Virus genome (UHGV): UHGV-0010228 | Length of the DNA: 64,000 bases | Reading direction: 5' to 3' (one strand) | DNA from: a virus | Shown here: positions 2,396-63,427 of the stretch, piece after piece | Position numbering within the stretch: position 1 is the stretch's first letter | Layout of the letters: each line of letters opens with the position of its first letter | Program-made: the position numbers and the translations under genes | The notes under the pieces: generated by a model | Databases searched by the model: none | What the model was told of the DNA's origin: nothing | Seen by the model: only the letters and a program-made list of their open reading frames with translations

Positions 2396-2523
2396 TAGAG
2401 ATAATTATAAGCGCGGATTTCTTATAATTATTTCACTAAAATAATATATCATTATAAAAAAAATAGAGGATGAAGAATAAACTTCATCCTCTTATGCTAG
2501 TTATTTATATAATTAGCAAATTT

Positions 2524-3258
2524 TTACCAACCCTGATAATCGTAAAGATTTGCTAAATCTTCATCAAGAAAATCCATTGCCTCATCATATGCAACATCAA
2601 GATCTTCTTCTGTTATACCCATGACATCTCCAGCATTATTATTGAAAGTGTCATTTATATAATCTGTAGATATATAATTATATCCACATACAGTTGATAT
2701 AAATTCCTGAATTTCTGGAGCACATGCCATACGCCATTCATAAGTTGGATACTTATTTACTATCTTAACTTTTAATGGTTTAGAACTGGCTTGATTCCAA
2801 TGAACTGTAAAATCATACGATTCTCTTAATTCGTTAAGAGAATCAACATATGACATACCAGATAGCAGTCCTAACTGAGCCTGAAGGAGCATAGCTCCAT
2901 AATCATTGAAGTTAAGAGTTCCATATGTTATCTCATACTCCTTAACCTCGTCATTATCAGTTATAGTATCAAAACTGATAATGTCAAATCCAGTTGCACA
3001 GTCTTTTGCAACTATTTGTGCAACTTCTGAAATTTCTGACTCTGAAATTCCCATTTCTCCTTCACCTAACCACGAGAGCCAGTTTTCTAACGTTTCCTGA
3101 ATACCATACCCAGTAAACTTTTCAAACTGACTCCAGCTATTTTTTGTATTAATTTGCTCAAAAGTATTATACACCATTTCGGATGATTTTGCACATCCTG
3201 TGAATAATAATATTGACGCAATAACTAATACTAATACGGTAAAGATACTTTTCTTCAT
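2524..3258 (-). CDS. Putative secreted lipoprotein
   Basis: Start at MKKSIFTVLVLVIASILLFTGC after 'aaggaggg'. Signal peptide plus lipobox-like LFTGC. Confidence 0.6.
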   Translation of the reverse strand: MKKSIFTVLVLVIASILLFTGCAKSSEMVYNTFEQINTKNSWSQFEKFTGYGIQETLENWLSWLGEGEMGISESEISEVAQIVAKDCATGFDIISFDTITDNDEVKEYEITYGTLNFNDYGAMLLQAQLGLLSGMSYVDSLNELRESYDFTVHWNQASSKPLKVKIVNKYPTYEWRMACAPEIQEFISTVCGYNYISTDYINDTFNNNAGDVMGITEEDLDVAYDEAMDFLDEDLANLYDYQGW

Positions 3259-3271: not shown

Positions 3272-3877
3272 TTATACATAAAGATTATTCCATTCTACAA
3301 CCGAATACTGATCGGTTCCATCCATTGGCATTTGGTCTGAATATGCCCAATAAATGCCAATTACATGATATTCCTCATTAGGATTTATTCTTAATCCTAT
3401 AGTCTTTTCATAATCCAAAACAATTTCTGGATCGGTAACATTTTCAATTGGGCTGAATGTGTTTGGAAAATATGGATCTTCTATAAAGTGTGAGAAAAAT
3501 TCATCATCAGTAGCAATGATATATATATTCTCAAGGTCTGGAAAATATAATGCAATTTCTGGACCTTCCCCATAATAATTTCCAGTAACATGTGATCCCA
3601 TATCACTTTCATCGATATCAATAAGAGCAAATTTTGCTCTACTCTTATCAATATAATCTAAATAGGTCATTGTATCTTCAACTATAGATTTTAATTCATC
3701 AGATGGTATATACCCGTTAAATTCTGAATTGGGATTTACATCCCAGTTATACTGATAACTATCCTCGTCAGAAGATACTGGTGATGATTCTATAGGGTTT
3801 TCTTTGGCTGGTGATTCTCCAACTCCACAACCTGATAAACCTATAATACCTGCTAATATTAATGCTACAATTTTCAT
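3272..3877 (-). CDS. Putative secreted lipoprotein
   Basis: MKIVALILAGIIGLSGC is a canonical lipobox (L-S-G-C). RBS 'aaggagg'. Arranged in tandem with 2524-3258. Confidence 0.65.
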   Translation of the reverse strand: MKIVALILAGIIGLSGCGVGESPAKENPIESSPVSSDEDSYQYNWDVNPNSEFNGYIPSDELKSIVEDTMTYLDYIDKSRAKFALIDIDESDMGSHVTGNYYGEGPEIALYFPDLENIYIIATDDEFFSHFIEDPYFPNTFSPIENVTDPEIVLDYEKTIGLRINPNEEYHVIGIYWAYSDQMPMDGTDQYSVVEWNNLYV

Positions 3878-4003
3878 TTTATTTCCTCCTTAATAATAAC
3901 TTATAACTAGCATTTAATCACTATAATAATATATCAATTTAAAAAAATACAAATATCAGGAAGCTTTAACATTTCATTAAAATGTATACAAGGAGGTGTA
4001 CAA

Positions 4004-7000
4004 ATGCTATTCGAAAATTATGAAGATTGGAGAGTATATCCACCACAACCGAGGATATATTTCCCTAAAAATTCTTCAAAAAATAAAACTGCAGGATATG
4101 GATCAGCGTTATTTTTATTAACCCCCAAAACTACATCATCTTTCGAATTTATGAAAGATAAAAATGTAGCACTCAGAATGTCTTTATATAAATACTATAT
4201 GATAGAGACGATGTATAAAGAAAAAATTGGTCGAAAAAATGTCATATTAAATATGACTAGACAGATGGAAGCTTTATATAATGAAAATAATGTTGAAAAA
4301 GATACTACAATATCTTATATTCCTAGACCTCAGAAAAAAGCTAGATTAAAATCTGGTAATAATATAATTGTAGATTTATCAATGTGGATGGAATTATATC
4401 TTAAATATACAGTAACTATTCAGAATCCTAAGGAAAAGTGTAGAATATTTATAGATTTATTAGATAAATTGCTTAATGATAGTAATTATAATAATTATGA
4501 AAAATTAGTATGCATAGATATAAATTCATGGACTAATAGAGCGGCAGATTGTGTTATGATGAATCGCGATCTACTCAATAACCCTCTATCAATTTTAATT
4601 TATGCTATGGTTAAATATCCGGATTTATTAAATGGAAAACTTAAAAACTTTAGAATATATCTCGTAAATAGATCTAGTAAGCAGATTTTTCTCTTTAATA
4701 CAAAAGATATTATTAAAGATAATTATAACAAATTTAAGAGTAAGATCAAATTATTCAAGGGTATATCTATATCATCTTCTGAAACTCTTGAGGGCGATAC
4801 CAATATATCAGAAGGTGAAGCCAAGGCTATCGCTATCAATAATTATAAAAATAAAGTATTAAAGTCAATGAAGAGTAATCTCTTAGGTAACAGTAAGAAT
4901 ACTGAAATTCGAGAAATTACTGACGATGATGAATTGATTGATAGTAATGATGATTATGATGAGATCTTCGATGTTACTAAAGAAATAGAAGAAGAATCTG
5001 ATGAAGTAAAACCAACCGATGAAGATTCTAATCTTTTTGATGAAATGGGAGCAGAGTTAGATCTTGATGCTGAAGCTTTGGCTGAATTAGATAATATGAT
5101 TGGTGATATTGATGATGTATCAACTGATGATATATTGAATACTCCAGTAGATGAAGTTGCAGATGATCTTGCTGAACGTGTTAAAAATAATGTATTCATT
5201 GCGGAATTTAAACCTAAGAGGACAAGTGAGCAAGAAGAGCGAAATCGTGAAATGATGGATATTCAGGCAATAGCTCTTAATCAGGAAAATATTGATAATG
5301 CAAAAACCAAGATAATTGATACAACAGATTTTTCAGACTATATCAATTCTTCCAATGTAAATATTCTTAAATCAAAATATGTTAATTTTGATAAAGACTA
5401 TGTTGAAAAGAAAATGGAAGGTGACATAGACAATGCTGTTGCTTGCTTATCTGGAGCGACAGATAAGATATTCATCACCAATAAAGAAGTTATTGATTCT
5501 TCAGACTCTTTAAATCTTAAGAGGACTTTAAAATATTCCCTTGAAGATGAAAAAGGTAATAAAATGACAATAACTTTTGATGTACCTATTATAATTGATA
5601 ACTGCTATATCTATGTAAATGGTAGTAAGAAGTTGATAGGTCATCAGTTTATATTAAAACCTCTAGTAAAAACTGGTCCTGATACTGTTCAGTTAGTAAC
5701 TTCATATAATAAAGTATTTATCACTAGAGATGGCGTTGTAGATTATATATCTTCTAGCATTATAACTTATATGGAGAAGAATCCAGAGAAGTTTAAGTGT
5801 GTTAGGGGTAATTCATCAATTAAGAATAAGAAATATAACACAGCATTAGATTTTACAATGTATGCTAAGTTATTTACTAGATTTACAATTGGTGATGAAG
5901 AATTTATTACCGGCATTGAAGAATTTTATGATAGATACAATAAAAAATATCCAACTAAAAAACTTAAGTTGGATAAAAAGAAAATTGCTGAGAAGTATCC
6001 AATTTCATTTAATAAAAAGACTGGTGAAATAAGATATATGAAATCAACTGAAAGTTTTTCGGATATCTTATTATCAATCATTGATGAAGAAGATAAGAAA
6101 GCAATTAGTAGAATTAAAAAGAAACCTAGACTGGTTTATGTTAGGGCTAAATTAATGGGCCAAATATTCCCAATGGCTCTTCTTTTAATGTATCATGAAG
6201 GATTCGCGTCTATAATGAAACGTGCAGATATTGCTTATCAATTCACAGATAAGAAGTCATATAATAAAATGGATAAAATGAGATATGATTTCTTAGAACT
6301 ATCGGATGGATTAGTCGTCTGGGAACGTAGAAATATGTTAACTTCATTACTCATGAATGGCTTAAAGCGATTAGATTTTACACCTTATACAATAGAAGAG
6401 TTAGAATCTAAGGATACTTATAGGTCATTATTAGTCGACTTATATAATGGGGATAATTCTATTTCATATAAAATAGATCAGTTCTATGATTTTACAATAG
6501 ATTCTATTACTAAGGAGATATTAGAGGATATGAATTATCCTACAAATCTTCCTGATTTATTAATATTAGCAGTTAAGATGTTATGTGATAGCGCATATGC
6601 TCTTGAAAATAATATGAATAATATGAGAATTAGAAGTAATGAGGTAATTCCAGCGATTATTCATAAAGAAATAGCAGATGCATATAACTTATATAGAAAG
6701 ACATCTTATAAGAAGAAACCAGTTAATGTATCTATTAAACCAAATATCATAATTGATAAATTACTATCTGCTGATACCAATCTCATCGAGGAATTTAGTA
6801 CTATAAATCCTGTATTAGAGATAGAAAAAGCTCGTTGTGTAACATTTAAAGGCTATAGAGGTATACAGTTAGATAGAGCGATAACTCTTCCTAGACGTGG
6901 ATATGATCCATCAATGTTAGGAATTATGGGAATTTCAACATCATCAGATGCTAACTGTGGTGTAAATAGACAGATGACATTAGAACCTGCGATTACATCT

Positions 7001-7159
7001 ACAAGAGGATACTTGGAGGTAAATGGTGTTGAAAATGTAAATTCTTTAACAGATGCTAATTTACTATCGCCAGCAGAATTATTAACACCACTCGGTGTTA
7101 TACATGATGACCCCGATAGAACTGCGATCAAAAAAAGCTTGTTAGATGTCGCAGTATAA
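4004..7159 (+). CDS. Multisubunit RNA polymerase beta subunit, N-terminal part (exon 1). The ORF reads through into a group I intron and stops at 7157-7159.
   Basis: RBS 'aaggagg'. C-terminal region 'SDANCGVNRQMTLEP' resembles the conserved bacterial beta motif 'DSNRALMGANMQRQAVPL'. 'YIYVNGSKKLIGHQFILKP' is reminiscent of 'FIINGTERVIVSQL'. Contiguous with the intron and exon 2. Confidence 0.55.
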   Translation: MLFENYEDWRVYPPQPRIYFPKNSSKNKTAGYGSALFLLTPKTTSSFEFMKDKNVALRMSLYKYYMIETMYKEKIGRKNVILNMTRQMEALYNENNVEKDTTISYIPRPQKKARLKSGNNIIVDLSMWMELYLKYTVTIQNPKEKCRIFIDLLDKLLNDSNYNNYEKLVCIDINSWTNRAADCVMMNRDLLNNPLSILIYAMVKYPDLLNGKLKNFRIYLVNRSSKQIFLFNTKDIIKDNYNKFKSKIKLFKGISISSSETLEGDTNISEGEAKAIAINNYKNKVLKSMKSNLLGNSKNTEIREITDDDELIDSNDDYDEIFDVTKEIEEESDEVKPTDEDSNLFDEMGAELDLDAEALAELDNMIGDIDDVSTDDILNTPVDEVADDLAERVKNNVFIAEFKPKRTSEQEERNREMMDIQAIALNQENIDNAKTKIIDTTDFSDYINSSNVNILKSKYVNFDKDYVEKKMEGDIDNAVACLSGATDKIFITNKEVIDSSDSLNLKRTLKYSLEDEKGNKMTITFDVPIIIDNCYIYVNGSKKLIGHQFILKPLVKTGPDTVQLVTSYNKVFITRDGVVDYISSSIITYMEKNPEKFKCVRGNSSIKNKKYNTALDFTMYAKLFTRFTIGDEEFITGIEEFYDRYNKKYPTKKLKLDKKKIAEKYPISFNKKTGEIRYMKSTESFSDILLSIIDEEDKKAISRIKKKPRLVYVRAKLMGQIFPMALLLMYHEGFASIMKRADIAYQFTDKKSYNKMDKMRYDFLELSDGLVVWERRNMLTSLLMNGLKRLDFTPYTIEELESKDTYRSLLVDLYNGDNSISYKIDQFYDFTIDSITKEILEDMNYPTNLPDLLILAVKMLCDSAYALENNMNNMRIRSNEVIPAIIHKEIADAYNLYRKTSYKKKPVNVSIKPNIIIDKLLSADTNLIEEFSTINPVLEIEKARCVTFKGYRGIQLDRAITLPRRGYDPSMLGIMGISTSSDANCGVNRQMTLEPAITSTRGYLEVNGVENVNSLTDANLLSPAELLTPLGVIHDDPDRTAIKKSLLDVAV

Positions 7160-7542
7160 TACCTTGTGAATTGCGGGGATAATTGATACTTTTTATATAC
7201 TAAATCATTATAGTAATATAATGATGGCGAGGGGTAATTCCTTAGGTATAGTAATAATTATAAAAAGAATATTAAATCCGCATCTAATGCTCTTTATACG
7301 AGAAAAGTTCAGAGACTATCGAAAGCTAGATATCTATCATTTATAGAAATATATAAAATACTATACAATATATAGTATGGATAGATTGAGATAACCAAGT
7401 GAGTAGAGTAGAGCCAAGTTATTGGGTTAGTATATATATGATATTAGTATATAGTAAATCTATTAAATCGAAGCGCAAGGGTTAGATTTTATTTGGTAAA
7501 AGAGTAAGATCTAATAAGATATAGTCCGCGATCACATTGTGG
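7001..7542 (+). ncRNA. Group I self-splicing intron with no internal ORF, interrupting the RNAP beta gene. Boundaries are approximate.
   Basis: Canonical core elements occur in the right order and spacing: P 'gAATTGCGGGg' at 7168-7178, Q 'AAATCCGCA' at 7262-7270, R 'GTTCAGAGACTATC' at 7295-7308 and S 'AAGATATAGTCC' at 7516-7527. P4 pairs tgcgg with ccgca, and P7 pairs gacta with tagtc. Candidate P1 is exon 'atct' (6997-7000) with IGS 'ggat' (7007-7010). Candidate P10 is 'aaga' (7003-7006) with exon-2 'tctt' (7543-7546). Candidate omega-G is 7542. Confidence 0.7.
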
Positions 7543-8724
7543 TCTTACAAGCAAACGAAATACATGATTCCAGTTGCTGATTCGTCACCAGTGTTAATAG
7601 GTAATAAAGTTGAATCTATTTTACCATATTTAATTTCAAATGAATTTGTTGTTGATGCTAAGCAAGATGGTGAAGTTGTTGAGATTAAAGACGATTATTG
7701 TGTCGTAAAATATAAAGATGGAACTTATTATTCTATAGATATTGGAAGTAGAATTAAGAAAAATGCAAGTGCAGGTTTCTTTATAGACAATAAATTAACT
7801 TGCAATTTAAAAGTTGGAGATAAATTCAAAAAGGGTGATATTTTAGCTTACAGTGATAAAGCATTTACTCCTAATAGAGATGGTAAAGGCGCATCTATGA
7901 ATTTAGGAGTATTAACAAAAATTGCAATTGTAAGTAATTGGGATGTATATGAGGATAGTGCACCTATCACTAAAAAATTAGCTGAACGGTTAGCTACAGA
8001 TATGGTTTGGGAAAAAGCAGTATCATTAAATCCTGGTACTTACATTGAAAAGATGGTTAAGATTGGTGATAAAATAAAGACTGGTGAATCACTGATGTTA
8101 TTTGAAGAAGTTGATGATACGGATTTCGCTGCTGTTCTTAAACAGATTCGTGAAGAAAATCAAGAAGAACTTATTGAAAGCACAAAATCAACTATTACTT
8201 CGAAATACACAGGAGAAATTGCTGATATTAAAATATATTCAACTGTGCCAGTTGAAGAGATGGATGAATCTTTAGCTAAAATAGTGACCGATTATTATAA
8301 AAAGGTCGAAAAAAGAAATAATATTCTTGAAAAATATAAGAATCCTGGAGATTGTAATTATTATAAATCTGGACAGATTATATCTGAGGAATCTAAAGTT
8401 ATGAAACCATCTAAATCTGGTAAGATTAAAGGTGAGTATGCCGAAAATTCAGTAGTTATTGTATTCTATGTTAAGTATAGAGATGTAGCTGCTAAGGGTG
8501 ATAAAGTATGTGCACAGTTCGCACTTAAGGGTGTTTGCTCACATGTTATAGAAGAAGGATTAGAGCCATATTCTGAATATAGACCAGATGAAGAAATATC
8601 AGCTCTTATTGCACCTCTTGCAGTATCTGCAAGAAAAGTTCCGTCAGTATTCAAGATGATGTTTGGTAATAAATTGCTTATAGAATTAAAACGACATTTG
8701 AAAGATATGTACTTAAATAACTAA
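7543..8724 (+). CDS. Multisubunit RNA polymerase beta subunit, C-terminal part (exon 2)
   Basis: 'IPVADSSPVLIGNKVE' resembles 'VPLMQPEAPFVGTGME'. 'GDKVCAQFALKGVCSHVIEEGLEPYSE...IAPLAVSARK' matches the universally conserved beta motif 'GDKMAGRHGNKGVISKI..EDMPY...LNPLGVPSRMN'. There is no ATG or RBS at the 5' end of the ORF (the track starts at TTG), consistent with an exon. Confidence 0.75.
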   Translation, partial: SYKQTKYMIPVADSSPVLIGNKVESILPYLISNEFVVDAKQDGEVVEIKDDYCVVKYKDGTYYSIDIGSRIKKNASAGFFIDNKLTCNLKVGDKFKKGDILAYSDKAFTPNRDGKGASMNLGVLTKIAIVSNWDVYEDSAPITKKLAERLATDMVWEKAVSLNPGTYIEKMVKIGDKIKTGESLMLFEEVDDTDFAAVLKQIREENQEELIESTKSTITSKYTGEIADIKIYSTVPVEEMDESLAKIVTDYYKKVEKRNNILEKYKNPGDCNYYKSGQIISEESKVMKPSKSGKIKGEYAENSVVIVFYVKYRDVAAKGDKVCAQFALKGVCSHVIEEGLEPYSEYRPDEEISALIAPLAVSARKVPSVFKMMFGNKLLIELKRHLKDMYLNN

Positions 8725-8848
8725 ATAAACAAATTATGAATATAAGATATTGTCTAATATCTTATATTCATAATTCTATATAAATTTTATGAATATATTA
8801 TTTTGATGATAATATTATATTTCTTAAACAGTGAAAGGAGAATTAAAA

Positions 8849-9925
8849 ATGGAAACTACGAGAAAAATTACACACAAAACGATAAAGAACGGTGAGGTTC
8901 TTGTAGACTCAACAAACACAGAAGTTACTACAATTGAAACGGGTGATAATTATCATAGAGAAATCACAATTTCAAAAAGCGAATCCGGGGAAAATGAATT
9001 TGTTTCATTTAAAGGGGTTCGTCATTTCTCCGATAATTCTTATCGAGATGAATCATATTATATTACTAACGAATCATTAGTTGGAAATGTCTCAGATGTT
9101 ACAGATATTGACGAAGGTGATTATCATATTACCATTGAAGAGCACTACTATTGTATCATTGAGGGTAATTACTTAAATAATATTCCTGAAACTCTTCCTG
9201 AAGATTCCTTAATTCTTGAACGTGTGATGGTTACTAGTAAATCTAAAACCCCTTCAGGAATTGAATATGCTGCAACTGCAGTAACTGAATGTAAGACTAC
9301 TGAAGGTATGGATGAGTATAACTATATGGTATCTACACATACTTTACCAACAGATACCGAATCACCATTTGGTGGTAAAACGCAGCTTATTGCAGTTAAT
9401 TCACTTGAACCTGGAAGAACTAGAGTTAGATTAGTATGTGTTACTGTACCTGATGATGATTCTAATCCTGAATTATTATTTGCATTTGAAAATGTAGGTA
9501 GTAAGGATTCAGATCCTTCAGCATTTATTTCAACACATATTAATTATGATCAGATGGATTCCGTTTTAAATATATCTATAACAGATCTTGAAGATGGAAA
9601 TGTGTATATTGAATTAAAGAATGAAAACGTTGAAATCGAAGTTGGAGTATCGTTAGAAGAATTCAAGAGTAGAAAAGTTACAGATATTAATGGTGCAATA
9701 TATCTCGAATCTAATATTGGGGATGATAGTAGAAACACACTTGAACTTATCGGTGATAGTGGGTTCGCTAAGATCGAACAGATCATCTCATTAATAACAT
9801 GGGATAAAGTGATTGAAAAAATCAATGATGTTTTGAAGTATATTAATAACAGTGAAATTGCAAATATAACTTTCATGTTTGAGGACGGTGAAGCACATTT
9901 TGATCCTGATTATATTCAGGCATAA
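8849..9925 (+). CDS. Hypothetical protein
   Basis: ATG at 8849 with RBS 'aaaggag' at 8834-8840. The track start at 8831 is GTG. Followed by a strong terminator. Confidence 0.6.
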   Translation: METTRKITHKTIKNGEVLVDSTNTEVTTIETGDNYHREITISKSESGENEFVSFKGVRHFSDNSYRDESYYITNESLVGNVSDVTDIDEGDYHITIEEHYYCIIEGNYLNNIPETLPEDSLILERVMVTSKSKTPSGIEYAATAVTECKTTEGMDEYNYMVSTHTLPTDTESPFGGKTQLIAVNSLEPGRTRVRLVCVTVPDDDSNPELLFAFENVGSKDSDPSAFISTHINYDQMDSVLNISITDLEDGNVYIELKNENVEIEVGVSLEEFKSRKVTDINGAIYLESNIGDDSRNTLELIGDSGFAKIEQIISLITWDKVIEKINDVLKYINNSEIANITFMFEDGEAHFDPDYIQA

Positions 9926-9955
9926 TAATATTGCTATCTAAAATTTAATATAATA

Positions 9956-9992
9956 AAGTATCACAAAATTTTGTGATACTTTATTTTTTTTC
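9956..9992 (+). terminator. Rho-independent terminator
   Basis: Hairpin 'aagtatcacaaaattttgtgatactt' followed by T9. Confidence 0.75.
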
Positions 9993-10493
9993 TGAAAATA
10001 TTTTGATAGATTTTTAAACGATATATTACTCAGATGAATCTTTCGTTTCATAAGAGTTTATATAGAAATATTTCTATATAAACTCTTATTCCTAGTTGTA
10101 TATAAATGAGCTTATATAAATATAAATATTTATATAAGTAGATAGATATTAGAATTTATATATAATCTATATAGAGTTTATAGAGCTTTTATATATAAAT
10201 ATAGTAGATATTATATATATTTATATAAATAGAAAATAAATTATAAATAGTTATGAATTTTATTAAAGAATATTATTTACAGTTATATAAATAAATCTAT
10301 ATAAATAAATCTATATAAATATTTCAATACTCAATAAATATAAAAATACTCTTTAATAAATATATTATATAATAGAATATAAATTATATCCGATATAAAA
10401 ATACCCTACCCTGACGGCATCCGAGCAATATATCTTCGATATAATGTTATGGGGTATTTTTAAGTTTTCAACCCCCGAAAGGAGTCAATTAAA
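9993..10493. repeat. Non-coding AT-rich region with a 38-bp perfect palindrome (10051-10088) and about 8 copies of the 'TATATAAATA' iteron. Candidate origin or regulatory hub.
   Basis: 'taagagtttatatagaaat|atttctatataaactctta' is a perfect inverted repeat. 'ttatataaat' recurs throughout 10100-10330, including the tandem 'aaatctatataaataaatctatataaat'. There is a stem-loop 'aaataccc...gggtattt' at 10401-10456. Confidence 0.6.
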
Positions 10494-11006: not shown

Positions 11007-11150
11007 TTATAATATAAAAGAAATATAGTAGAAGGCTAAAAGCCTTCTACTATATTTACCACACAGATTTTCAAAAAGGAATGAATTATTTGAGGAAAAA
11101 TTTATACAATATGTTTTCAAATTTACATATATGTTTAGTATATTCTAAAA

Positions 11151-11696: not shown

Positions 11697-11848
11697 TCTT
11701 TAATCGGGAATAAACTACACTAGGATTTATATTACAATAGGAGATTTAGTAATTTTCTTTTTTCTAGGTTTTACATACATGTTAATACAATATAAAAATT
11801 TATTTATATTAATATATTATTAATTTGATAGGAGGAAATATAAATATT

Positions 11849-12976
11849 ATGAGAAAAGGTATAATCTTAAAGAATAGTGGTAAATATAGTATCAAATCTT
11901 TACCAAAATTAATTCCAAAAAGAAATAAATTAGATAAGATTAAGTATATCTTATTACCAATAATGGGAGATATGTATAATATATACTTACCATTAATACC
12001 AACTGAATTAATGTATTCTACAAAAATTACAGTTAATATGATATTAGGCACATATTCTGTTGACTATGAAACTGAAGAGATCATATACTTAGATGAATTA
12101 TATGATGATAGAGAATTTGATGATTATATATCGTTTATAAATTATATTTATACTATATATAAATCAGATGGATTCAATATTGTATTTTCATCATTAAAAT
12201 CAGACTCATTTAATGTTGAAATATTTGAATTCTTAAAAGTTACAAGTCTGGATATTAAATTTTATAAAGATAATGAATTAAAAGATAAAATCTTTTATGA
12301 ATCTGAAGATCCAGATTATCAAAATTATTATATAAATGGAGTTGAAGCTATAAATCAAGATTTAATATCGTTATTAGATAAAATAATAGTTCCAACGTAT
12401 AATCCACATAGTCAACCAAAAAGATTGGAAAGTATATTATTTAATGATTTAGGATATGAATTCTCACCAATAAATGATTTAAAAGATAATCATATTTATT
12501 GCGATTTTGTATTATATCCAATATATGAATTTAATAGTTTCATAATGATATCTCCAGATGAAATAGAAAATCTCAGCAAAAATTATTCATCTAGGTTATA
12601 CATCTTAACATTGCCCAAAATAATTAAGTATTATAATGATCCTCAAGTAATGAATAATATTAAAAATCTAATAATACGAGATGAAATATCTGGTGAGTTG
12701 GATGTATGGGATTACTTTGAGTATTCAATATTATATTATGATCGTATATTAACTTTAATACCATATATAGAGTATATTTGCTTATATTTAGAATATATAT
12801 ACATGAATTATCTTGATGATAATATTAATCCTGGAGAAAGCAATATACTTATTAAAGTTAATAGTGATGGAAGAAGATTATCTGATTGTGATTACTATCT
12901 TTTATCAGAATTAAAAGATCGTAATAATATAAATTCAATTATATCTAAACTATTAGAAGGAGAAGACAATGATTAA
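11849..12976 (+). CDS. Hypothetical protein (Y/I/N-rich)
   Basis: ATG at 11849 with RBS 'taggagg'. A plus-oriented 'taatatattattaatttg' motif lies at 11809-11826. Confidence 0.55.
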   Translation: MRKGIILKNSGKYSIKSLPKLIPKRNKLDKIKYILLPIMGDMYNIYLPLIPTELMYSTKITVNMILGTYSVDYETEEIIYLDELYDDREFDDYISFINYIYTIYKSDGFNIVFSSLKSDSFNVEIFEFLKVTSLDIKFYKDNELKDKIFYESEDPDYQNYYINGVEAINQDLISLLDKIIVPTYNPHSQPKRLESILFNDLGYEFSPINDLKDNHIYCDFVLYPIYEFNSFIMISPDEIENLSKNYSSRLYILTLPKIIKYYNDPQVMNNIKNLIIRDEISGELDVWDYFEYSILYYDRILTLIPYIEYICLYLEYIYMNYLDDNINPGESNILIKVNSDGRRLSDCDYYLLSELKDRNNINSIISKLLEGEDND

Positions 12977-13679
12977 AAACATGATAATGAAAAGTAGATT
13001 CTTAAAAATCTATATGCCTTTAGATGAGAAAGATGCTTTATTAATATTGAATGAAGCAAGCCAGATCTTTGATAATGGTATAGTGATTTATCCTCACGAT
13101 ATCGATTCACCTATAGATCCAGAATCGTGCTATATAATAAAACATAAAGGTGAATCTCCAAATGGTGACATATTCAGATATATATCTGATTGTGCAATAC
13201 TTAATGGGTCAGATTCGATTCCATCAACACTAATTCCAATGGAATTAGAAATCGCACCAGCAACAAATATTCATATACTAAGTAAATTAGATACTGAAAG
13301 ATCAAATGATAAATTCATAATTTATCCATGTACAGATATGAATTTAATAATCAAAGTAAAGACAAAATTTTATGAAAAAGTAGTATCATCAGTAAAAGGT
13401 GTCAGATTTGATTTTGCATTGAAACCTATAGGTGAAGTACTTAATAGATATAACATATTTAATTCAACTGCATTGATATCTGATATATTTCTGGTTGTTA
13501 AATATATGCTTTATCTACCATATATCGTAATGGCATATGGAGATGCGTGTGCACTTAAGATATCTATAGAATATAAAGATAAGTCAACAACTAATATTCT
13601 ATACTCATATGATGATGTTGTTCATGGTAATATTATAGCTGATGTAATGGAGGTGATAAATTGGAAGGAATCTCATTAG
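12969..13679 (+). CDS. Hypothetical protein
   Basis: Start overlaps the upstream stop (ATGATTAA). 236 aa. Confidence 0.55.
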   Translation: MIKNMIMKSRFLKIYMPLDEKDALLILNEASQIFDNGIVIYPHDIDSPIDPESCYIIKHKGESPNGDIFRYISDCAILNGSDSIPSTLIPMELEIAPATNIHILSKLDTERSNDKFIIYPCTDMNLIIKVKTKFYEKVVSSVKGVRFDFALKPIGEVLNRYNIFNSTALISDIFLVVKYMLYLPYIVMAYGDACALKISIEYKDKSTTNILYSYDDVVHGNIIADVMEVINWKESH

Positions 13680-13763
13680 ACAAAATTCTGGAGAGTTTAA
13701 ACTCTCCAGAAAATAAACTGATAAATCCAAATTATAAAGGTAATATAGAGGAGGACAATACTG

Positions 13764-14378
13764 GTGATATTTGATAAACTTACAATGAAAATTATTAATA
13801 ATGAAAAGAAATTGATAGATTTAAATAATAGTGAATCTACAGCATTTGCTGTAGATATTATAACAGAATATTGTGTCCACAATAAAACTCATATAATACA
13901 AATAGTAAAATCGTCTATTGTAGCATTACTATTAATGATTATAATGATATTTTCTTGGATAAATATGTATAAGCATCAAGTTGTGATAAATATGGATTAT
14001 GATTTATTAGTTGCAATAGATCATATTTTATTAACAATATGTAGCATATATGCGCTATATTATTTAATTTCATCTGGAAAAATAACTGTATTATTAGTTG
14101 ACGTATATAATTCAATTAATCACTTAGGTAGTTTGAGTAAACTTCATAAAGAAATTAATAGTATCGATCCAGATGAACTCAAGACTAATAAATCTAAGGA
14201 ATTATTTAGCCAAGCAATTAATCAAGTTGTAAATCTTAGTGAACTTAAAACTGCATATTTAATTGCTGATCATTTATCATATGCCAACGAATATGTATCT
14301 TTCAATAGAGTGCGAAATTTCATGAATAAATTGGTTGTGTGTTATGTTGCGTTAACATCTTTCTTAATATATATTTAA
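13764..14378 (+). CDS. Membrane protein (multiple TM helices)
   Basis: GTG start with 'gaggagg' 8 nt upstream. Hydrophobic segments 'IVALLLMIIMIFSWI' and 'LLTICSIYALYYLI'. Confidence 0.5.
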   Translation: MIFDKLTMKIINNEKKLIDLNNSESTAFAVDIITEYCVHNKTHIIQIVKSSIVALLLMIIMIFSWINMYKHQVVINMDYDLLVAIDHILLTICSIYALYYLISSGKITVLLVDVYNSINHLGSLSKLHKEINSIDPDELKTNKSKELFSQAINQVVNLSELKTAYLIADHLSYANEYVSFNRVRNFMNKLVVCYVALTSFLIYI

Positions 14379-14396
14379 ATTGGAGGTTAAAATACT

Positions 14397-14858
14397 ATGA
14401 GTAATATGAAAAATTTTAATCTTAATAATCCGTTCGTTATTAAGTGTAAAGAGAGTTATGATAATCTCAATAAGACAATAATTGAATCTATCAAGGCTTC
14501 AATTGAGATGATTATTGGTACCTTTATAATAGTGCTAATAGATTTATTAGGGCATTTTCTTATGCCTGAATATAATAATATCACTAGAGCACTGATAAGT
14601 GCAATTGTATTATTTACATTAGTTATTATATTATCAACCCTATTAGTTGATAATATAATACGCAAATCTAAATTAGTTGATATAAATAAATTAATAGATT
14701 CAAATTCATTTGAAGTATTAAATGCTAATAATGAATTACTATTCAATACCAATCTTGAAATAGAAAATCTAGAAGGTAAATGTAATGTTATGATAAATGT
14801 ATTTATTGTAACATTATGTGTTGAAATTGTTAGTCAGATTATATTATGGGTGGTGTAA
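14397..14858 (+). CDS. Membrane protein
   Basis: RBS 'ggaggt'. TM segments 'IIGTFIIVLIDLLG' and 'ISAIVLFTLVIILSTLLV'. Confidence 0.5.
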   Translation: MSNMKNFNLNNPFVIKCKESYDNLNKTIIESIKASIEMIIGTFIIVLIDLLGHFLMPEYNNITRALISAIVLFTLVIILSTLLVDNIIRKSKLVDINKLIDSNSFEVLNANNELLFNTNLEIENLEGKCNVMINVFIVTLCVEIVSQIILWVV

Positions 14859-14861
14859 GTT

Positions 14862-15359
14862 ATGGAAATAAATGGAATAATTAAAAAATATAAGTTATCA
14901 TCTTTACCTGAAGATATCAAAAGTGATATATTATCTATGAGCCCTAAATATATTCCTGAGATTATTAAAACTAATACTTCTACATTTATAAAGGCTAATG
15001 ATATAGCAATGATAGATAATTGGTCTAAATCATATATTAGATTTATATTGTATGATGTAAATGGTAAAATGATCGATAATGATGGGGATTATATTGAATA
15101 TGATGATTCGTTATATATGGCAAGATATTCAATATCATCTATAGCTACAATAGATCAGTTGAATATGGATTATGTAGTTAAATGTGATGATATTGAGTTA
15201 TATGGAGTTATTGATGGTAATGGTAATACTAGATATATAGGATTTATATCTATGGACTTAGATAAATTTCCAGATTTAAATTCAATAATATTTGGAGAAG
15301 AAAATAGAGAAATAATTTATAATAAATTCTTCAAGTATAATCAGAATATAAAAAAATAA
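14862..15359 (+). CDS. Hypothetical protein
   Basis: 165-aa ORF tightly following 14397-14858. Confidence 0.5.
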   Translation: MEINGIIKKYKLSSLPEDIKSDILSMSPKYIPEIIKTNTSTFIKANDIAMIDNWSKSYIRFILYDVNGKMIDNDGDYIEYDDSLYMARYSISSIATIDQLNMDYVVKCDDIELYGVIDGNGNTRYIGFISMDLDKFPDLNSIIFGEENREIIYNKFFKYNQNIKK

Positions 15360-15441: not shown

Positions 15442-15981
15442 TTAGTAATGCACTACTCCTCCAAGTGCATCCATGATAGGGTCGAGCTTCCGACCAATGT
15501 GCTTATATATACGCATATGGTCGTTAATTTCTGGAGTGAATTTTCCTCCAGAAACTTCAAGCTCCTTCTGGATCAGTTTTTCCAGCTGATCCATAGCTCC
15601 TATAAGAGCCTTTGCTTTTTCGTTGAGTTCTTCGTTATTCATCTTTGAGTAAGAAGAATTCGTACTTGAAAAAGCTTTCTTTGCTTTGTCTCTTGTAAAG
15701 CAAAGTAAAGATTTGAGTTTCTGAGCTGCCGGTGGAAGGATCTTAGCTGCAGCATATGCTGTACCATATGTTACAGCACAAAGGCCGGCATATGCTCCTA
15801 ATACAGCAGCCGTTACTTTTATAGCATCTGCAGGAGTTGCCTTAAGGTCAGTTGTTTTTTCAACTTCCTCGTTCTCGATCTGTTCTCGAGCCTCAACGAC
15901 TCTGCGATCCTGAAGATTTGATAATAAATTCTCTTCAGTTGTAGTTGTAGTATTAACCTGATTCATCTTATTTTTTCTCAT
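15442..15981 (-). CDS. Membrane-anchored hypothetical protein, GC-richer than its surroundings (moron-like)
   Basis: Roughly 40% GC against about 28% around it. TM segment 'VTAAVLGAYAGLCAVTYGTAYAAA'. RBS 'aaggagg'. Preceded by the conserved terminator-promoter module. Confidence 0.6.
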   Translation of the reverse strand: MRKNKMNQVNTTTTTEENLLSNLQDRRVVEAREQIENEEVEKTTDLKATPADAIKVTAAVLGAYAGLCAVTYGTAYAAAKILPPAAQKLKSLLCFTRDKAKKAFSSTNSSYSKMNNEELNEKAKALIGAMDQLEKLIQKELEVSGGKFTPEINDHMRIYKHIGRKLDPIMDALGGVVHY

Positions 15982-16100
15982 AGTATTTTCCTCCTTATTA
16001 TACTATATGAGTTGTATTTATTCACTTTAATAATATACTAATAAAAAAAAAAGAAATTACGGTATATTCTATATATAGAATATACCGTAAATAATATAAT
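15982..16100 (-). promoter_or_regulatory. Repeated module, copy 1: 36-bp perfect-palindrome terminator (16057-16092) + T10 + 'TATATTATTAAAGTG' promoter-like motif + conserved leader with TGTATAAT-like box and RBS
   Basis: The minus-strand read gives a hairpin then 'tttctttttttttt' then 'tattagtatattattaaagtg'. Near-identical copies occur at 33912-34030 and 17112-17190. Confidence 0.6.
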
Positions 16101-16104: not shown

Positions 16105-16276
16105 ACAATTCATATTAGTCATCAAACTCGATAGGTTTGATGTCATCAGCAACTTCTTTAAGTTCATCAAGAGTCATAACTTCATCATCATATACTGCAT
16201 TAGCAGTATTAATAATAGTTGCTAATCCTCCTATAATAGATAATGCACCAAATGCATAATTGAGTAATCTCATCAT
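16105..16276 (-). CDS. Small hydrophobic protein (about 56 aa)
   Basis: MMRLLNYAFGALSIIGGLATIINTANAVYDDEVMTLDELKEVADDIKPIEFDD. RBS 'aaggag'. Below the ORF-track length cutoff. Confidence 0.45.
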
Positions 16277-16367
16277 TTTTGTGTGCTCCTTTCCATAATT
16301 ATCATTATTATATAGTTATATTTATATAAAAAAGATAAGTCGATAATCAACTTATCTTTGGTAGAGT

Positions 16368-16493
16368 TTATCTACCTGTTAATTCTTTTCTTATAGCATT
16401 ATAACCATCATTAACTAACCGAGTAGTAATGGTTGTAAAGAATGCTGTGATTATAGCTGTTAATGCTATAATCCCTATTTTCTTCCATCCCAT
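16368..16493 (-). CDS. Small membrane protein (41 aa)
   Basis: MGWKKIGIIALTAIITAFFTTITTRLVNDGYNAIRKELTGR. RBS 'aggagg'. Confidence 0.45.
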   Translation of the reverse strand: MGWKKIGIIALTAIITAFFTTITTRLVNDGYNAIRKELTGR

Positions 16494-16578
16494 AATAGTA
16501 ACCTCCTATGTATTTATTCATATTAATAATATATTGAAAAAAATAAAGTATAATAAGTGCATTGAAGCACTCACGCTT

Positions 16579-16794
16579 TTATTTGCGTGAGTGCTTTTTT
16601 CTTCTCATATATTTGGATATCTTCTGATATCCAAATATAATTACTGCTTCTGATAGGAGTATTCCTACTCCTATTATAATTGTCTGGAAATCTGCGCCGC
16701 CAATGCAGCAGCAGATGCCGACTACAGTTATTGCGAATATGAGTATGGACAGTGTCCATACCCATATTCTTTCAATTGGAGTTGTGTTTTTCAT
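16579..16794 (-). CDS. Small membrane protein (71 aa) with a CCC motif
   Basis: MKNTTPIERIWVWTLSILIFAITVVGICCCIGG... GC-richer codons. The C-terminal codons form a hairpin plus T6 on the plus strand (16566-16600). Confidence 0.5.
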   Translation of the reverse strand: MKNTTPIERIWVWTLSILIFAITVVGICCCIGGADFQTIIIGVGILLSEAVIIFGYQKISKYMRRKKHSRK

Positions 16795-16795
16795 T

Positions 16796-16963
16796 TTAAC
16801 ACCCCCAATTGTTATGTAAGAGATTTATATTCATCTCTTCCTGACGAAGCTGCTCTGCCTGAAGGCGCTGCTGCTCCTCTTCCATTAATTTGTGGGCTTT
16901 CTTAATAAGCCCACCGCCACCTTTCTTTTCAGTCTCTCTAACTTCTTTAAATCTAATTCTCAT
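16796..16963 (-). CDS. Small charged protein (55 aa), paralog of 16968-17111
   Basis: MRIRFKEVRETEKKGGGGLIKKAHKLMEEEQQRLQAEQLRQEE... RBS 'aaggagg'. The track's 88-aa version is an upstream extension. Confidence 0.5.
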   Translation of the reverse strand: MRIRFKEVRETEKKGGGGLIKKAHKLMEEEQQRLQAEQLRQEEMNINLLHNNWGC

Positions 16964-16967
16964 GATG

Positions 16968-17111
16968 TTATTCCTCCTTTTCATCATATCCCATAAGTTC
17001 TTTATAAAGGCGTAATGCTTCTTCAGAGAAGCCACCCTGTGAAGATTTTTTGTTTTCTTCACGTTCTTTCACCTCTATTATCTCTCTCACTTCTCTAATT
17101 TTTATTCTCAT
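16968..17111 (-). CDS. Small charged protein (47 aa), paralog of 16796-16963
   Basis: MRIKIREVREIIEVKEREENKKSSQGGFSEEALRLYKELMGYDEKEE. RBS 'aaggagg'. Same N-terminal MRI(K/R)..EVRE as its paralog. Confidence 0.5.
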   Translation of the reverse strand: MRIKIREVREIIEVKEREENKKSSQGGFSEEALRLYKELMGYDEKEE

Positions 17112-17190
17112 AGTATTTCCTCCTTTATTATACACTATGATTATAACTTCACTTTAATAATATATGAATATACAATCCAGTAATTACGGT
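17112..17190 (-). promoter_or_regulatory. Repeated promoter/leader module, copy 3 (drives the small-protein operon 17111 to 16105)
   Basis: The minus-strand read is 'accgtaattactggattgtatattcatatattattaaagtgaagttataatcatagtgtataataaaggagg'. It shares 'accgtaatt', 'tatattattaaagtg' and 'catagtgtataat' with copies 1 and 2. Confidence 0.55.
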
Positions 17191-18978: not shown

Positions 18979-19611
18979 TTAGAGGTCTTCTTTATCCGCT
19001 ACAGGAGTAGGAGCTTTGTAAGGGTCGAAAATAACTTCATTTCGATATACTCCTATAGCATCTTCAAGATTAATCTTTTTGCTTACAAATGCAAATGATC
19101 CTCGATTATTAGTTATTTCTGATAAGTCAATATTATTTACAGATTCACCATCAATAATATCTGTAATAATATTCTTTATATAACCATAATGCCGACGAAT
19201 GTTTTCGCCTTCTTTAACAGATATCATTACAAAATCTGTACTATTAATATCAACATTATATGGCCCATGTATTGTATCGAAAGTGAATACAAAGTCGGAT
19301 TCTTTATTTCTAGGACTTGGTATTCTTCCATAACGAATAAATACTCTCTCTGCAGATATGATATCTGAGAGTAATATTGTACGAGGAATTGTAAGATGTG
19401 TTGGTCCTTCTTCAGACCACTGAACATTAGATTCTAATGTAACTTCCTTTTTTTCTTCATTTATGATTACATTACATATAGATGCTATCAATTCCATCCC
19501 ATTGTTTAATCTAAAATGATATGTGCATGATGATGAAATGAATCCTGATATTGGCTGATCTTCCTTAAATACAGGAATATTCCATCCCTTTCTAACAGTA
19601 GCTGATGCCAT
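18979..19611 (-). CDS. Hypothetical protein
   Basis: 210-aa ORF. The promoter-like motif 'cattgtaataatataatatt' lies at 19668-19687 upstream. Confidence 0.5.
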   Translation of the reverse strand: MASATVRKGWNIPVFKEDQPISGFISSSCTYHFRLNNGMELIASICNVIINEEKKEVTLESNVQWSEEGPTHLTIPRTILLSDIISAERVFIRYGRIPSPRNKESDFVFTFDTIHGPYNVDINSTDFVMISVKEGENIRRHYGYIKNIITDIIDGESVNNIDLSEITNNRGSFAFVSKKINLEDAIGVYRNEVIFDPYKAPTPVADKEDL

Positions 19612-19706
19612 GTTAATCTCCTCTCTATAAAAACTTTCTTTAAAAATAAAATATTAATAAGTTATTTACATTGTAATAATATAATATTAGAGAGGAGACT
19701 CATTAA

Positions 19707-24195: not shown

Positions 24196-24331
24196 TTAGA
24201 CCTAACCTCCTATATAATATTTTATTCCCATTCTTCATTGTAATAATATATTAGCAAAAAATAAACTTAAGAATTGATAAGGATAGGAGCTAGTAGCGTT
24301 TAACTACTAGCTCCCTATCGGAGAATAAATA

Positions 24332-24595
24332 CTATGAGATTGAAGATTCTTCAGAATTTATCTCTGAAATATCTTCCGGATTTATATCAACATCTGAATT
24401 AGATGTAGATGTCGCTTCCGCTTCAATATTGTCAGATTCGATGTTACCATCTCCACCATACTCTGGATCGTCAGCTGGGCAACACGCATAGTCTGGTGCT
24501 GATCCATCCTTAGAGAATATACCTTTTGCGATCCACAGTCCTGCGCATACAATTGCAATACCGATAATTACTAAAACCTTTTTAATTCCTGACAT
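24332..24595 (-). CDS. Small membrane-anchored protein with an acidic tail
   Basis: TM segment 'VLVIIGIAIVCAGLWIAKGIF', then a D/E/S-rich tail. Confidence 0.5.
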   Translation of the reverse strand: MSGIKKVLVIIGIAIVCAGLWIAKGIFSKDGSAPDYACCPADDPEYGGDGNIESDNIEAEATSTSNSDVDINPEDISEINSEESSIS

Positions 24596-24674
24596 TTTTA
24601 TGTCCTCCTTTATAAGTACTTATAAGATGTATTTTATCACATTAATAATATATCAATAAAATTAATATCTATTT

Positions 24675-25157
24675 TTACATTCTATAAAATCCTTCTATAG
24701 GAATATAATCATCGAATTCTTCGTCTATATCATATACAAATTTACGATAAAAATCTGGTAAATTATATAACTGATCAACAAAATTAGTCGCTAAGTATCC
24801 AGTGATTTTATCGATTGTTGATACAATATCAGATTCATTTCTAATTTTACTTTCGTCAATACATAATACAATATAATTTGATGAATAAATTTCAAAATCT
24901 AAATCACCATTCGTGATTATTAAGAATAAACCCTTTAATGGTTCTAATGTCTCTGTCTTACATAATACCCCAACTACCATCGAACCTGAAATTATAGCAT
25001 TACGTTTACGACCATTAATTGGATATAATTTATGTAAATTTCGAAGTATGTCCGAAATAGAGAGATCAGTAACATCTAAATTTAACTGAACATAATCAAG
25101 ATCAGTTACTTTTTCTGGTAAGAATTTCTTCAGAAAATTTTCCTTTGACTCTACCAT
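24675..25157 (-). CDS. Hypothetical protein
   Basis: Start MVESKEN after 'aaaggag'. The upstream hairpin 25203-25232 terminates the preceding gene. Confidence 0.5.
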   Translation of the reverse strand: MVESKENFLKKFLPEKVTDLDYVQLNLDVTDLSISDILRNLHKLYPINGRKRNAIISGSMVVGVLCKTETLEPLKGLFLIITNGDLDFEIYSSNYIVLCIDESKIRNESDIVSTIDKITGYLATNFVDQLYNLPDFYRKFVYDIDEEFDDYIPIEGFYRM

Positions 25158-29940: not shown

Positions 29941-30116
29941 AAAAATAATAAATAGGATAGCCTAAGGCTATCCTATTTATTATATATAATGTAAGAAAAA
30001 GAAGACACACAACTTTCAACTTTTCAGAATTTACATATATGTTTATAAAAAATTTATATCTATATCTAGAGATATTTTAACATTTAGATAATGATTTAAG
30101 GAGGTGATTTGTAATT

Positions 30117-33174: not shown

Positions 33175-33236
33175 GAAACCTCCGAAGAGGTTTCATAAAT
33201 AATCAGACTAGATTTATACTAGTCTGATTATTTTTA
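33175..33236. terminator. Back-to-back terminators
   Basis: Hairpin 'aatcagactagatttatactagtctgatt' plus 'attttt' serves the plus-strand holin gene. Hairpin 'gaaacctccgaagaggtttc', read on the minus strand and followed by T7, serves the minus-strand gene 33234-33911. Confidence 0.65.
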
Positions 33237-33911
33237 CTTGAAAAGACCTTCTGATATCAGAAGGTCTTTTCTACACCATTCGTCAAGTGTGACGAGACAA
33301 TCATTTTCATCACGCATAGCACCGAGCGCAACTGATCTCATAAGTTCTTTCTCATGAGAGACGAACTTTGAGTATGCTTCACCAAAGTTTGGTGAGGTCA
33401 CCTCAGGAAGAAATGCGAGTTTAGGATTATTAAGAACCTCCTTACACCTGTAATCAAGATACACGTCCATCAACTTGCACTCTTCTGGGCTGAAAATTTC
33501 AGCATTGCTCTTTCTGAGCTTTAATACTAAATTGTTAAATCTTTCATCCCAATTCGCAATAAAAGATTTAATTTTTTCCTTACCATATTTAGTGAGGATC
33601 TTACCAGCTTTATAATCTGGCAAGAAAGTTTTTACAATATCATCGATGAATATGGTAATGAGTTCGATAACACCACCTTTTTCATGATTAAAGATGAATG
33701 TAAAATCAAACCCCTGACCATTATCATCATGAGCCTGGATTCCGTGAATAGCGTTTGCGGATTTACAAATCATTGCTCTAAATATCGGGTCCGAAATGAA
33801 TTTCACAACTTTAGCTGATTCCTCACTTAATTCGAGCTTTGATTCGGAATCGAAAATCAATCCAATATTAGCAATAGTTATAATTTCTTCGTTAGTTATA
33901 TTAATTCTCAT
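33234..33911 (-). CDS. Hypothetical protein, GC-richer (moron-like)
   Basis: 3' half is about 42% GC. Preceded by copy 2 of the terminator/promoter/leader module. 225 aa. Confidence 0.6.
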   Translation of the reverse strand: MRINITNEEIITIANIGLIFDSESKLELSEESAKVVKFISDPIFRAMICKSANAIHGIQAHDDNGQGFDFTFIFNHEKGGVIELITIFIDDIVKTFLPDYKAGKILTKYGKEKIKSFIANWDERFNNLVLKLRKSNAEIFSPEECKLMDVYLDYRCKEVLNNPKLAFLPEVTSPNFGEAYSKFVSHEKELMRSVALGAMRDENDCLVTLDEWCRKDLLISEGLFK

Positions 33912-34030
33912 AGTATATATCTCCTTTCTTTATATACAATTTTTTATTGTATATACTATGACTATAATTTATTCTCATCTTAATAATATACAAATAAAAA
34001 AAAAAGAAATTACGGTATTTAATTATTATT
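33912..34030 (-). promoter_or_regulatory. Repeated module, copy 2
   Basis: The minus-strand read is 'accgtaatttcttttttttttatttgtatattattaag...tatagtcatagtatatacaat...aaggagatatatactATG'. It shares at least 40 nt with copy 1. Confidence 0.55.
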
Positions 34031-34928: not shown

Positions 34929-35130
34929 GAGAGTTTATAATTAATTAAGAAGAGTTATTTAATAACTCTTCTTTTTTATTAACTCATTTTATCTTTATAT
35001 ATTATTTTTATGCAGGACAGGAATAATCGATTATAAAAATATATAATAATAAACTTTTATATTAATTTAGAACCGTATTAGATCATGTCTTGAAATAAAT
35101 TAATGTAAGAAAAAGAAAGGGAGAATTAAA

Positions 35131-36397: not shown

Positions 36398-36650
36398 AAA
36401 CTCCTCTTTCTTATTATTTTTGTATTTATCATAAGACAATATATTATTAATATGTAAGTATACTAACACTTATATTAAAATTATATTGATTTATAGAAAG
36501 GAGATAATACTATGAGTATAGCAAATCAGACAAGTGGAGGAGCAAATTATCAGAATTCAAGTAGTGCAAATGATTTTAAATCTATAAAATTGAATCAAAC
36601 AAGTGCAATACATAATGAAACTATGAATTTCTCAGTTAAGGAGGAATTAA

Positions 36651-55414: not shown

Positions 55415-55465
55415 TTATTCTCATTAACTATTCACTTATACAATATATGAATATAATTAAAGAAA

Positions 55466-58978: not shown

Positions 58979-59150
58979 TTTTCTTTTCTCCTTTCTAATA
59001 TATTAATTATATAATAATCACGGGGCCATCTATTTTAATATATAATCACAAAAATAATATATTTATAAAAAATAAATAATATTCACATATTTTTATAAAT
59101 ATCAATTAAATATAGATTAACAGTGGAATAAATCAAGGGGGTGTTATATA

Positions 59151-61029: not shown

Positions 61030-61194
61030 TGTATAATTACCTCCTTTTAGGATTTTATTCATATTAAACACTTATTATCATAAATTTATTGTATTTGTTT
61101 ATATTGGTGTTAATTAAATTCCTGCAACTTCGATAATTATAAATAAAAAATATGAAATATATATTATTAAATTGAACTGAGAAGGAGGATTACA

Positions 61195-63293: not shown

Positions 63294-63427
63294 TAACAAA
63301 TTAGATAATAACTATAAAGAGGGGCGGATATTTATATCCGATAGATATTAACACCTTAATAATATATAGATGAAAAATTAATATATTACGATGAAATAAT
63401 AATAGAGTAGAATGATATCATTCTACT

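Follow-up and report, generated by a model that had tools for sequence, protein, structure and literature searches.

Probable AR9-type early promoters in a 64,000-nt stretch of an uncultivated jumbo phage genome

Introduction

The early promoters of phage AR9 are the closest described counterparts of the sites reported here. In AR9, 41 early promoters were mapped by dRNA-seq and primer extension, and their consensus is AAATATATATTAT-(6N)-G(+1) (PMC5312081). Early transcription of AR9 persists when translation is blocked; because it needs no new protein synthesis, the early motif has been attributed to a virion polymerase injected into the cell (PMC5312081). In phiKZ the early core is TATATTAC, and in OBP and N1M2 it is KATATTATYWAAGTGWA (PMC7058600). 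T-rich DNA upstream of -19 also belongs to the phiKZ early promoter as mapped (PMC8244752). A TATATTAT core was predicted upstream of 29 genes in MarsHill (bioRxiv 10.1101/2020.12.14.422802). According to a 2020 review, early motifs of jumbo phages vary by phage, and one can be identified in all jumbo phages that encode these polymerases. The kind of feature is already known, and the probable promoters of the DNA described here are a new case of AR9-type jumbo phage early promoters.

We analyzed 64,000 nt (the window, meaning the whole stretch of DNA under study) of UHGV-0010228, a metagenomic genome of an uncultivated phage. The window had a GC content of 29% and was approximately 90% coding by a crude gene call.

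Results

A conserved motif upstream of gene starts

Alignment of 16 strong sites revealed the pattern TATATTATT-N4-TG, which was fixed in all of them; the G was followed by A in 12. The octamer TATATTAT was followed by T as the next base at every site, and this region was centered near -10. A G lay 6 nt past TATATTAT in 16 of 16 sites, with an invariant T just before it, and was taken as the predicted start. The strong sites, named by strand and by the position of the initial T of TATATTAT, were 2448-, 3933-, 16037-, 17164-, 19683-, 24250-, 24652-, 33990-, 8794+, 11813+, 36440+, 61160+, 16533-, 34998+, 59061- and 63366-. The predicted cores, with the genes that each would drive, were as follows:

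2433..2448, minus strand: early promoter core TATATTATTTTAGTGA; predicted start G 2434; would drive 1832-2341 and 160-1842; terminator hairpin 2465-2492 directly upstream; kept in L004
3918..3933, minus strand: early promoter core TATATTATTATAGTGA; predicted start G 3919; would drive 3272-3877 and 2524-3258; ortholog at L004 9931-
8794..8809, plus strand: early promoter core TATATTATTTTGATGA; predicted start G 8808; would drive 8849-9925; core intact in L004 despite a 12-nt indel just upstream
11813..11828, plus strand: early promoter core TATATTATTAATTTGA; predicted start G 11827; would drive the operon 11849-15359
16022..16037, minus strand: early promoter core TATATTATTAAAGTGA; predicted start G 16023; would drive 15442-15981; terminator 16057-16090 upstream
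16518..16533, minus strand: early promoter core TATATTATTAATATGA; predicted start G 16519; would drive the small ORF 16368-16493; new relative to the initial annotation
17149..17164, minus strand: early promoter core TATATTATTAAAGTGA; predicted start G 17150; first ATG with a ribosome-binding site at 17114
19668..19683, minus strand: early promoter core TATATTATTACAATGT; predicted start G 19669; would drive 18979-19611
24235..24250, minus strand: early promoter core TATATTATTACAATGA; predicted start G 24236; would drive a six-gene operon from 24195 down to 20297
24637..24652, minus strand: early promoter core TATATTATTAATGTGA; predicted start G 24638; would drive 24332-24595
33975..33990, minus strand: early promoter core TATATTATTAAGATGA; predicted start G 33976; would drive 33234-33911
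34998..35013, plus strand: early promoter core TATATTATTTTTATGC; predicted start G 35012; would drive 35131-35574; terminator hairpin upstream; new
36440..36455, plus strand: early promoter core TATATTATTAATATGT; predicted start G 36454; would drive a small ORF, then gyrB 36651-39071 and gyrA 39082-41556
59046..59061, minus strand: early promoter core TATATTATTTTTGTGA; predicted start G 59047; would drive 58148-58978; new
61160..61175, plus strand: early promoter core TATATTATTAAATTGA; predicted start G 61174; would drive the family B DNA polymerase 61195-63219; ranked first by the AR9-trained matrix
63351..63366, minus strand: early promoter core TATATTATTAAGGTGT; predicted start G 63352; no ORF downstream, a structured RNA candidate of about 125 nt; new

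All 13 copies listed in the initial annotation were present within 1-3 nt of the positions given there, and 12 of them were strong sites; 16533-, 34998+, 59061- and 63366- were additional. The repeated motif was real. Its written consensus needs correction: only 3 strong sites out of 16 had the prefix TGA and 7 had GTG, so that neither is a general feature. The copy at 55434-55456, which had already been called a variant, was indeed TATATTGTATAAGTGA, with one core mismatch and a weak score. The weak sites were as follows:

55432..55447, minus strand: weak variant TATATTGTATAAGTGA; upstream of 53870-55396; function doubtful
10022..10037, plus strand: weak variant TATATTACTCAGATGA; lies within 9926-10493, a region with no ORF; same sequence in L004
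25172..25187, minus strand: weak variant TATATTAAAAATATGA; upstream of 24675-25157

Like these three, a further weak variant, at 7220-, had one mismatch. In AR9, a single-base deviation abolished the activity of the g057 promoter (PMC5312081).

The motif was concentrated in intergenic DNA. Intergenic DNA (6,198 nt) contained 16 copies of the looser pattern TATATTAT-N5-TG, and coding DNA (57,846 nt) contained a single one. The number expected in the intergenic DNA was 0.36 from dinucleotide shuffles and 0.44-0.63 from Markov models (order 3-5) built on the same intergenic sequence, with a simulation maximum of 4. Absence of enrichment once AT content is controlled had been named beforehand as the finding that would speak against the motif; with 16 sites versus 0.36-0.63 expected, the enrichment therefore held. 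All 16 window matches to the full pattern TATATTATT-N4-TG were intergenic, and the other two matches to the looser pattern lacked T at position 9.

Orientation was nearly uniform, with 15 of 16 sites facing a co-oriented gene start. Start codons lay 35-133 nt from the initial T of the motif, close to the 40-110 nt proposed initially, giving predicted leaders of 21-119 nt. The T-run said to precede the motif was also borne out: T made up 56% of the bases at -35 to -19 compared to 38% in the background (p = 5e-9). At approximately six sites this T-run doubled as the tail of an intrinsic terminator hairpin, and 10 sites had no adjacent hairpin. Terminator-like sites were themselves enriched (18 versus 4.2 +/- 1.8). 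A shared leader TGAATAAATACA past the start site was not enriched, with 41 matches versus 37.6 expected.

Three regions containing strong or weak sites had further features. A candidate early small RNA is the transcript predicted from the minus strand at 63225-63352 (about 125 nt), which had a fold of -39.2 kcal/mol, with z = -6.3 relative to shuffles, and ended in a long hairpin followed by T8, just past the 3' end of the DNA polymerase gene, which is convergent. On the minus strand at 16115-17164, very small genes (41-71 aa) were densely packed, with three early promoters in 1.1 kb and terminator hairpins between them, resembling the small early gene cassettes of other large phages. The region 9926-10493 (568 nt) was ORF-free and very AT-rich and contained a terminator, the variant 10022+, a hairpin and many direct repeats of the TATATAAAT type. 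It could be an origin-like or regulatory region.

Genome context and the virion polymerase gene

No match to the window was found in a nucleotide search against phage genomes. Pfam and PHROG searches recognized an RNA polymerase beta subunit and several structural proteins of the virion, together with a chaperonin, both gyrase subunits (B and A) and a family B DNA polymerase of divergent sequence. The DNA polymerase best matched those of AR9, PBS1 and related Bacillus phages (about 26% identity) and MarsHill, followed by Staphylococcus jumbo phages and phiR1-37. The best annotated matches of the beta subunit were the "viral RNA polymerase beta subunit" of the Staphylococcus jumbo phages MarsHill and Madawaska. 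Exact copies of window proteins were present on metagenomic contigs of 223-237 kb. Together, the protein matches and the size of these contigs place the window in an uncultivated jumbo phage that is related to AR9 and phiKZ and has its own multisubunit polymerases. The polymerase gene was as follows:

4004..8724 (4004-7159 + 7537-8724), plus strand: virion-type RNA polymerase beta subunit, by homology; a late-type motif upstream, not an early one

Beta was the virion polymerase subunit examined in the window, and it is the presumed reader of the early motif. The gene was broken by an intron-like insertion of about 400 nt (about 7133-7542), between ...DPDRTA and SYKQTKY... In the related protein P0007 (1419 aa), the sequence was seamless across the insertion point. 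Another relative, L007, had two Rfam group I introns (12924-13241 and 13390-13787) just downstream of its first beta ORF, overlapping the 3' end of that ORF. The insertion in the window had no Rfam hit even at E = 1, and tRNA and Rfam scans of the window returned nothing.

A late motif and the separation of two gene classes

Genes without the early motif mostly had AACA-N6-T[AG] upstream, which is the late-promoter consensus of AR9. This motif occurred 18 times in intergenic DNA versus 7-9 expected, and 13 copies were located 32-82 nt upstream of a co-oriented start:

3968..3979, plus strand: AR9-type late motif AACATTTCATTA; lies 36 nt before the gene for the polymerase beta subunit
17196+, 18929-, 26737-, 26755+, 30079+, 35595+, 45542+, 53823-, 56244+, 56261-, 59119+ and 61111-: the other 12 AR9-type late motif sites

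Of the 38 gene starts preceded by a gap of 45 nt or more, 15 had only the early motif, 13 had only the late motif, none had both and 10 had neither (Fisher p = 2.8e-4). The virion polymerase beta gene and all genes assigned to the virion or its structure (starts 26807, 30117, 45605 then 46980, 59151 and 60511) were behind late motifs. Behind the early motifs were gyrB, gyrA and the DNA polymerase gene, and no virion-assigned gene. This split of functions between the two motifs matches the AR9 programme.

Other features were observed among the late-type sites. The near-palindromic AACATATATGTA recurred on the minus strand at 11124-11135, 30032-30043 and 56250-56261, two of the copies having no downstream gene, and at 56244-56261 it formed overlapping divergent late-type motifs. 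A late-type operon included, beside other large genes, a gene on the minus strand (48094-52503) for a 1469-aa protein with beta-propeller (PQQ/WD40-like) repeats. AR9 reads its AACA late motif on the uracil-containing template strand, so by analogy this lineage might also carry uracil in its DNA.

Recovery of the sites with AR9 promoters and conservation in relatives

When the window was scored with a matrix trained on the mapped promoters of AR9 alone, the 17 best-scoring positions out of about 128,000 included 11 of the 16 sites, and ranks 1-4 were all among the 16.

Relatives were drawn from the protein database and its contigs; scans of IMG/VR with the DNA polymerase or the beta subunit as single queries yielded no relatives. 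The same core was present on contigs whose beta subunits share 96%, 51%, 44% and 43% identity with that of the window, one of these contigs being at 37% GC. Across eight orthologous sites in the relative with the 96% identical beta subunit, the core was 98% identical compared to 86% upstream and 80% downstream (60-nt flanks), and indels directly adjoined the intact core. In relatives with 36-42% identity, the core was diverged or absent in the DNA examined. The more distant L134 and L135 lacked the strict pattern, L134 having a diverged CATATAATT-N4-TGG. No clear motif was seen in 50 kb around the beta gene of Listeria phage LPJP1, whose beta subunit is the closest among cultured phages.

Some relatives had a structured early leader. 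Beside the polymerase beta gene, L005 (9012-), L006 (9884-), L007 (8170-), L134 (9897-) and L136 (9881-) each had an early transcript with a leader of about 140-230 nt. These leaders started with GGA and contained a 9-bp hairpin at about +18 to +54, in which seven of nine pairs showed compensatory changes over the five sequences. The loop was partly conserved as CGT..CGG(A/G), departing from this in L005. Rfam gave no match, and the window lacked a counterpart.

An upstream element in fixed register

At 4 of the 16 window sites, (C/T)CGTAAT preceded the motif, the CG lying exactly 24 nt upstream of the core, and sites in two relatives had the same arrangement. The window copies were as follows:

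16056..16062, minus strand: upstream element CCGTAAT; CG 24 nt upstream of the core, at about -38 relative to the predicted start; core 16037-
17183..17189, minus strand: upstream element CCGTAAT; same -24 register; core 17164-
34009..34015, minus strand: upstream element CCGTAAT; same -24 register; core 33990-
63385..63391, minus strand: upstream element TCGTAAT; same -24 register; core 63366-

Among 39 sites, CG occurred 10 times at the -24 offset and at most four times at any other offset. A weaker form of the element was widespread. In the window, T(-36), A(-35) and T(-33) were each present in 75-81% of the 16 sites. The AR9 promoters had TATT at -36 to -33 in 56-64% and AA at -31/-30 in 82-85%. 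In the AR9 promoter table, 9 of 38 promoters had CGTA at the -24 offset, and the tabulated sequences contained it at no other place. P292 was a tenth such promoter, seen once the ends of the AR9 record were joined: positions 251030-251042 of KU878088.1 followed by 1-30 gave CCGTAT in the exact -24 register for this end-located early promoter, which suggests that the record ends are contiguous in the phage DNA.

The AR9 authors single out eight "pre-early" genes (PMC5312081), which lie at or downstream of P048, P108, P120, P169, P234 and P292. The element was present in all six pre-early promoters and in 4 of 33 others (Fisher p = 6e-5), these four being g047, g069, g190 and g253. In an informal, uncomputed look at AR9 Table S2, the 20-minute signal heights did not differ obviously with or without the element, and it would therefore be tied to timing rather than strength. 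The element was absent from the text of the AR9 paper (PMC5312081), and a literature search, with the 2016 AR9 genome paper outside it, found nothing relevant, so the extra upstream element may be new to the literature.

A search of IMG/VR with CCGTAWT-N18-TATATTATT gave matches that were rejected as chance; among at least 120 single matches listed, 10 had N4-TG and none were clustered.

We propose tentatively, at somewhat short of an even chance, that the early promoters are bipartite. They would combine the core with a -35-like CCGTA(A/T)T (its C at about -38; reduced in the minimal form to TA(A/T)T, at -36 to -33), conserved from AR9 to the window phage, and the full form would mark a subclass that is first fired or first shut off. 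A conserved element at a constant offset, linked in AR9 to the earliest transcripts, would offer a handle on the sigma-less recognition of promoters by virion polymerases of jumbo phages.

Discussion

The sites described here very probably serve as early-class promoters in an uncultivated jumbo phage, a relative of AR9 and PBS1 and, more distantly, of phiKZ. A role as early promoters of a phiKZ-like virion RNAP had been suggested in the initial annotation. The match to AR9, the beta subunit gene, the presence of a second promoter class and the lack of host-type features all support this suggestion.

The TATTAT of the motif sits at -12 to -7, which makes promoters of the host sigma-A holoenzyme the main alternative; TATTAT would be the -10 hexamer and the T/A-rich DNA upstream a UP-like element. 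In many phages of Gram-positive hosts, the early genes are read by the host polymerase. SPO1 has been described in this way (PMC13401047). TATTAT matches TATAAT at five of six positions, and its spacing to the G is bacterial-like. However, a TTGACA-like -35 hexamer, 16-18 nt ahead of the -10 hexamer, did not occur above chance: the mean best match was 2.56 of 6 versus 2.61 in controls, and individual sites matched at two to three positions and none at four. There was no extended TG at -15/-14, where the sites had A and T, respectively, and two-hexamer sigma-70-like sites were not enriched in the first 20 kb (141 versus 159 +/- 16 shuffled). Nine invariant core bases together with T(-1) and G(+1) are also unlike sigma-A promoters, and in AR9 the same motif is credited to the injected virion polymerase (PMC5312081). 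That the sites are chiefly sigma-A promoters is thus improbable, although some recognition by the host polymerase is conceivable.

It is quite improbable that the sites are a middle class, read by a second, non-virion phage polymerase or through a phage-encoded specificity factor, because the motif that the second polymerase uses in AR9 is the other class found in the window. Two promoter classes were seen, the letters by themselves are silent on which enzyme reads which, and phiKZ does have a third, middle class. However, AACA-N6-TA is the motif of the AR9 non-virion holoenzyme, the genes for the virion polymerase beta subunit and virion proteins are behind the AACA class as in AR9, and TATATTAT-N6-G is the early class of AR9 (PMC5312081). 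The sites might instead have no promoter function and be a repeated binding site of a regulator or part of intergenic terminator or insulator cassettes. The position of about six sites directly after a terminator hairpin and the excess of terminator-like sites fit such a role, but the 10 sites without a hairpin, the strict orientation towards the downstream gene at promoter-like distances and the identity of the motif with the mapped promoter class of AR9 make it highly improbable.

As early-class promoters, the sites would work as in AR9. The sequence itself shows the motif with its enrichment, orientation and conservation, the split of genes between two motif classes and the polymerase gene; from homology and genome organisation, we infer which enzyme reads the motif, where exactly transcription would start and when. 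A multisubunit RNA polymerase packaged in the virion, with the beta subunit encoded at 4004-8724, would be injected with the DNA. It would recognize TATATTATT near -10, with the T-rich tract at about -35 to -19 before it, and would start at the invariant G, 6 nt past TATATTAT. Gyrase, the DNA polymerase and many small genes of unknown function could then be transcribed with neither the host polymerase nor newly made proteins being required. The late class would have its own, second polymerase, which would read the AACA-N6-TA late promoters of the virion genes and of the virion polymerase gene itself. The result is a predicted transcription map for an uncultivated jumbo-phage lineage, with 16 early and 13 late units in 64 kb.

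Comparison with known systems

The early promoters of the phiKZ group resemble those of the window in having an AT-rich element of about 10 nt centered at -10, a start about 6 nt further on and T-rich DNA upstream of -19. A phiKZ-like core had been suggested when the motif was first noticed; the literature gives TATATTAC (PMC7058600), and AR9 proved a much closer match. The phiKZ core agrees with the window at seven of eight positions, the window having T for the C that ends the phiKZ core, and the T-rich tract of the window is 56% T. In OBP and N1M2, ATATTATYWAAGTG is almost the window consensus. Unlike the window, with its AACA type, phiKZ has TATG late promoters, and the phages of this group are nucleus-forming and have Gram-negative hosts.

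MarsHill is similar in having TATATTAT-N5-TGA (in its first 50 kb) and an upstream AGCGTAAC at 3 of about 10 sites. However, its position 9 is A rather than T, its upstream CG is at -23 from the core rather than -24, and its promoters are predicted only.

AR9 is distant from the window phage, with a DNA polymerase that is about 26% identical, and the window has no nucleotide similarity to any phage record. The AR9 promoters have a near-invariant AAA at -19 to -17, where the window has A-T-T-a-A at -19 to -15, with T-rich DNA further upstream. The missing AAA argues against identity with the AR9 consensus but not against membership in the class of virion-polymerase early promoters. T(-6) and T(-1), invariant in the window, are merely preferred in AR9. 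By contrast, the TATATTAT octamer and the 6-nt gap to the invariant G are the same in the window as in AR9 and PBS1. AR9 also shares intergenic early sites before non-structural genes, a separate AACA-N6-TA late class before virion genes and a subset of promoters with CCGTA(T/A)T whose CG is exactly 24 nt upstream of the octamer. The two-polymerase programme of the AR9 type, along with both of its motifs, would thus persist across a very deep divergence.
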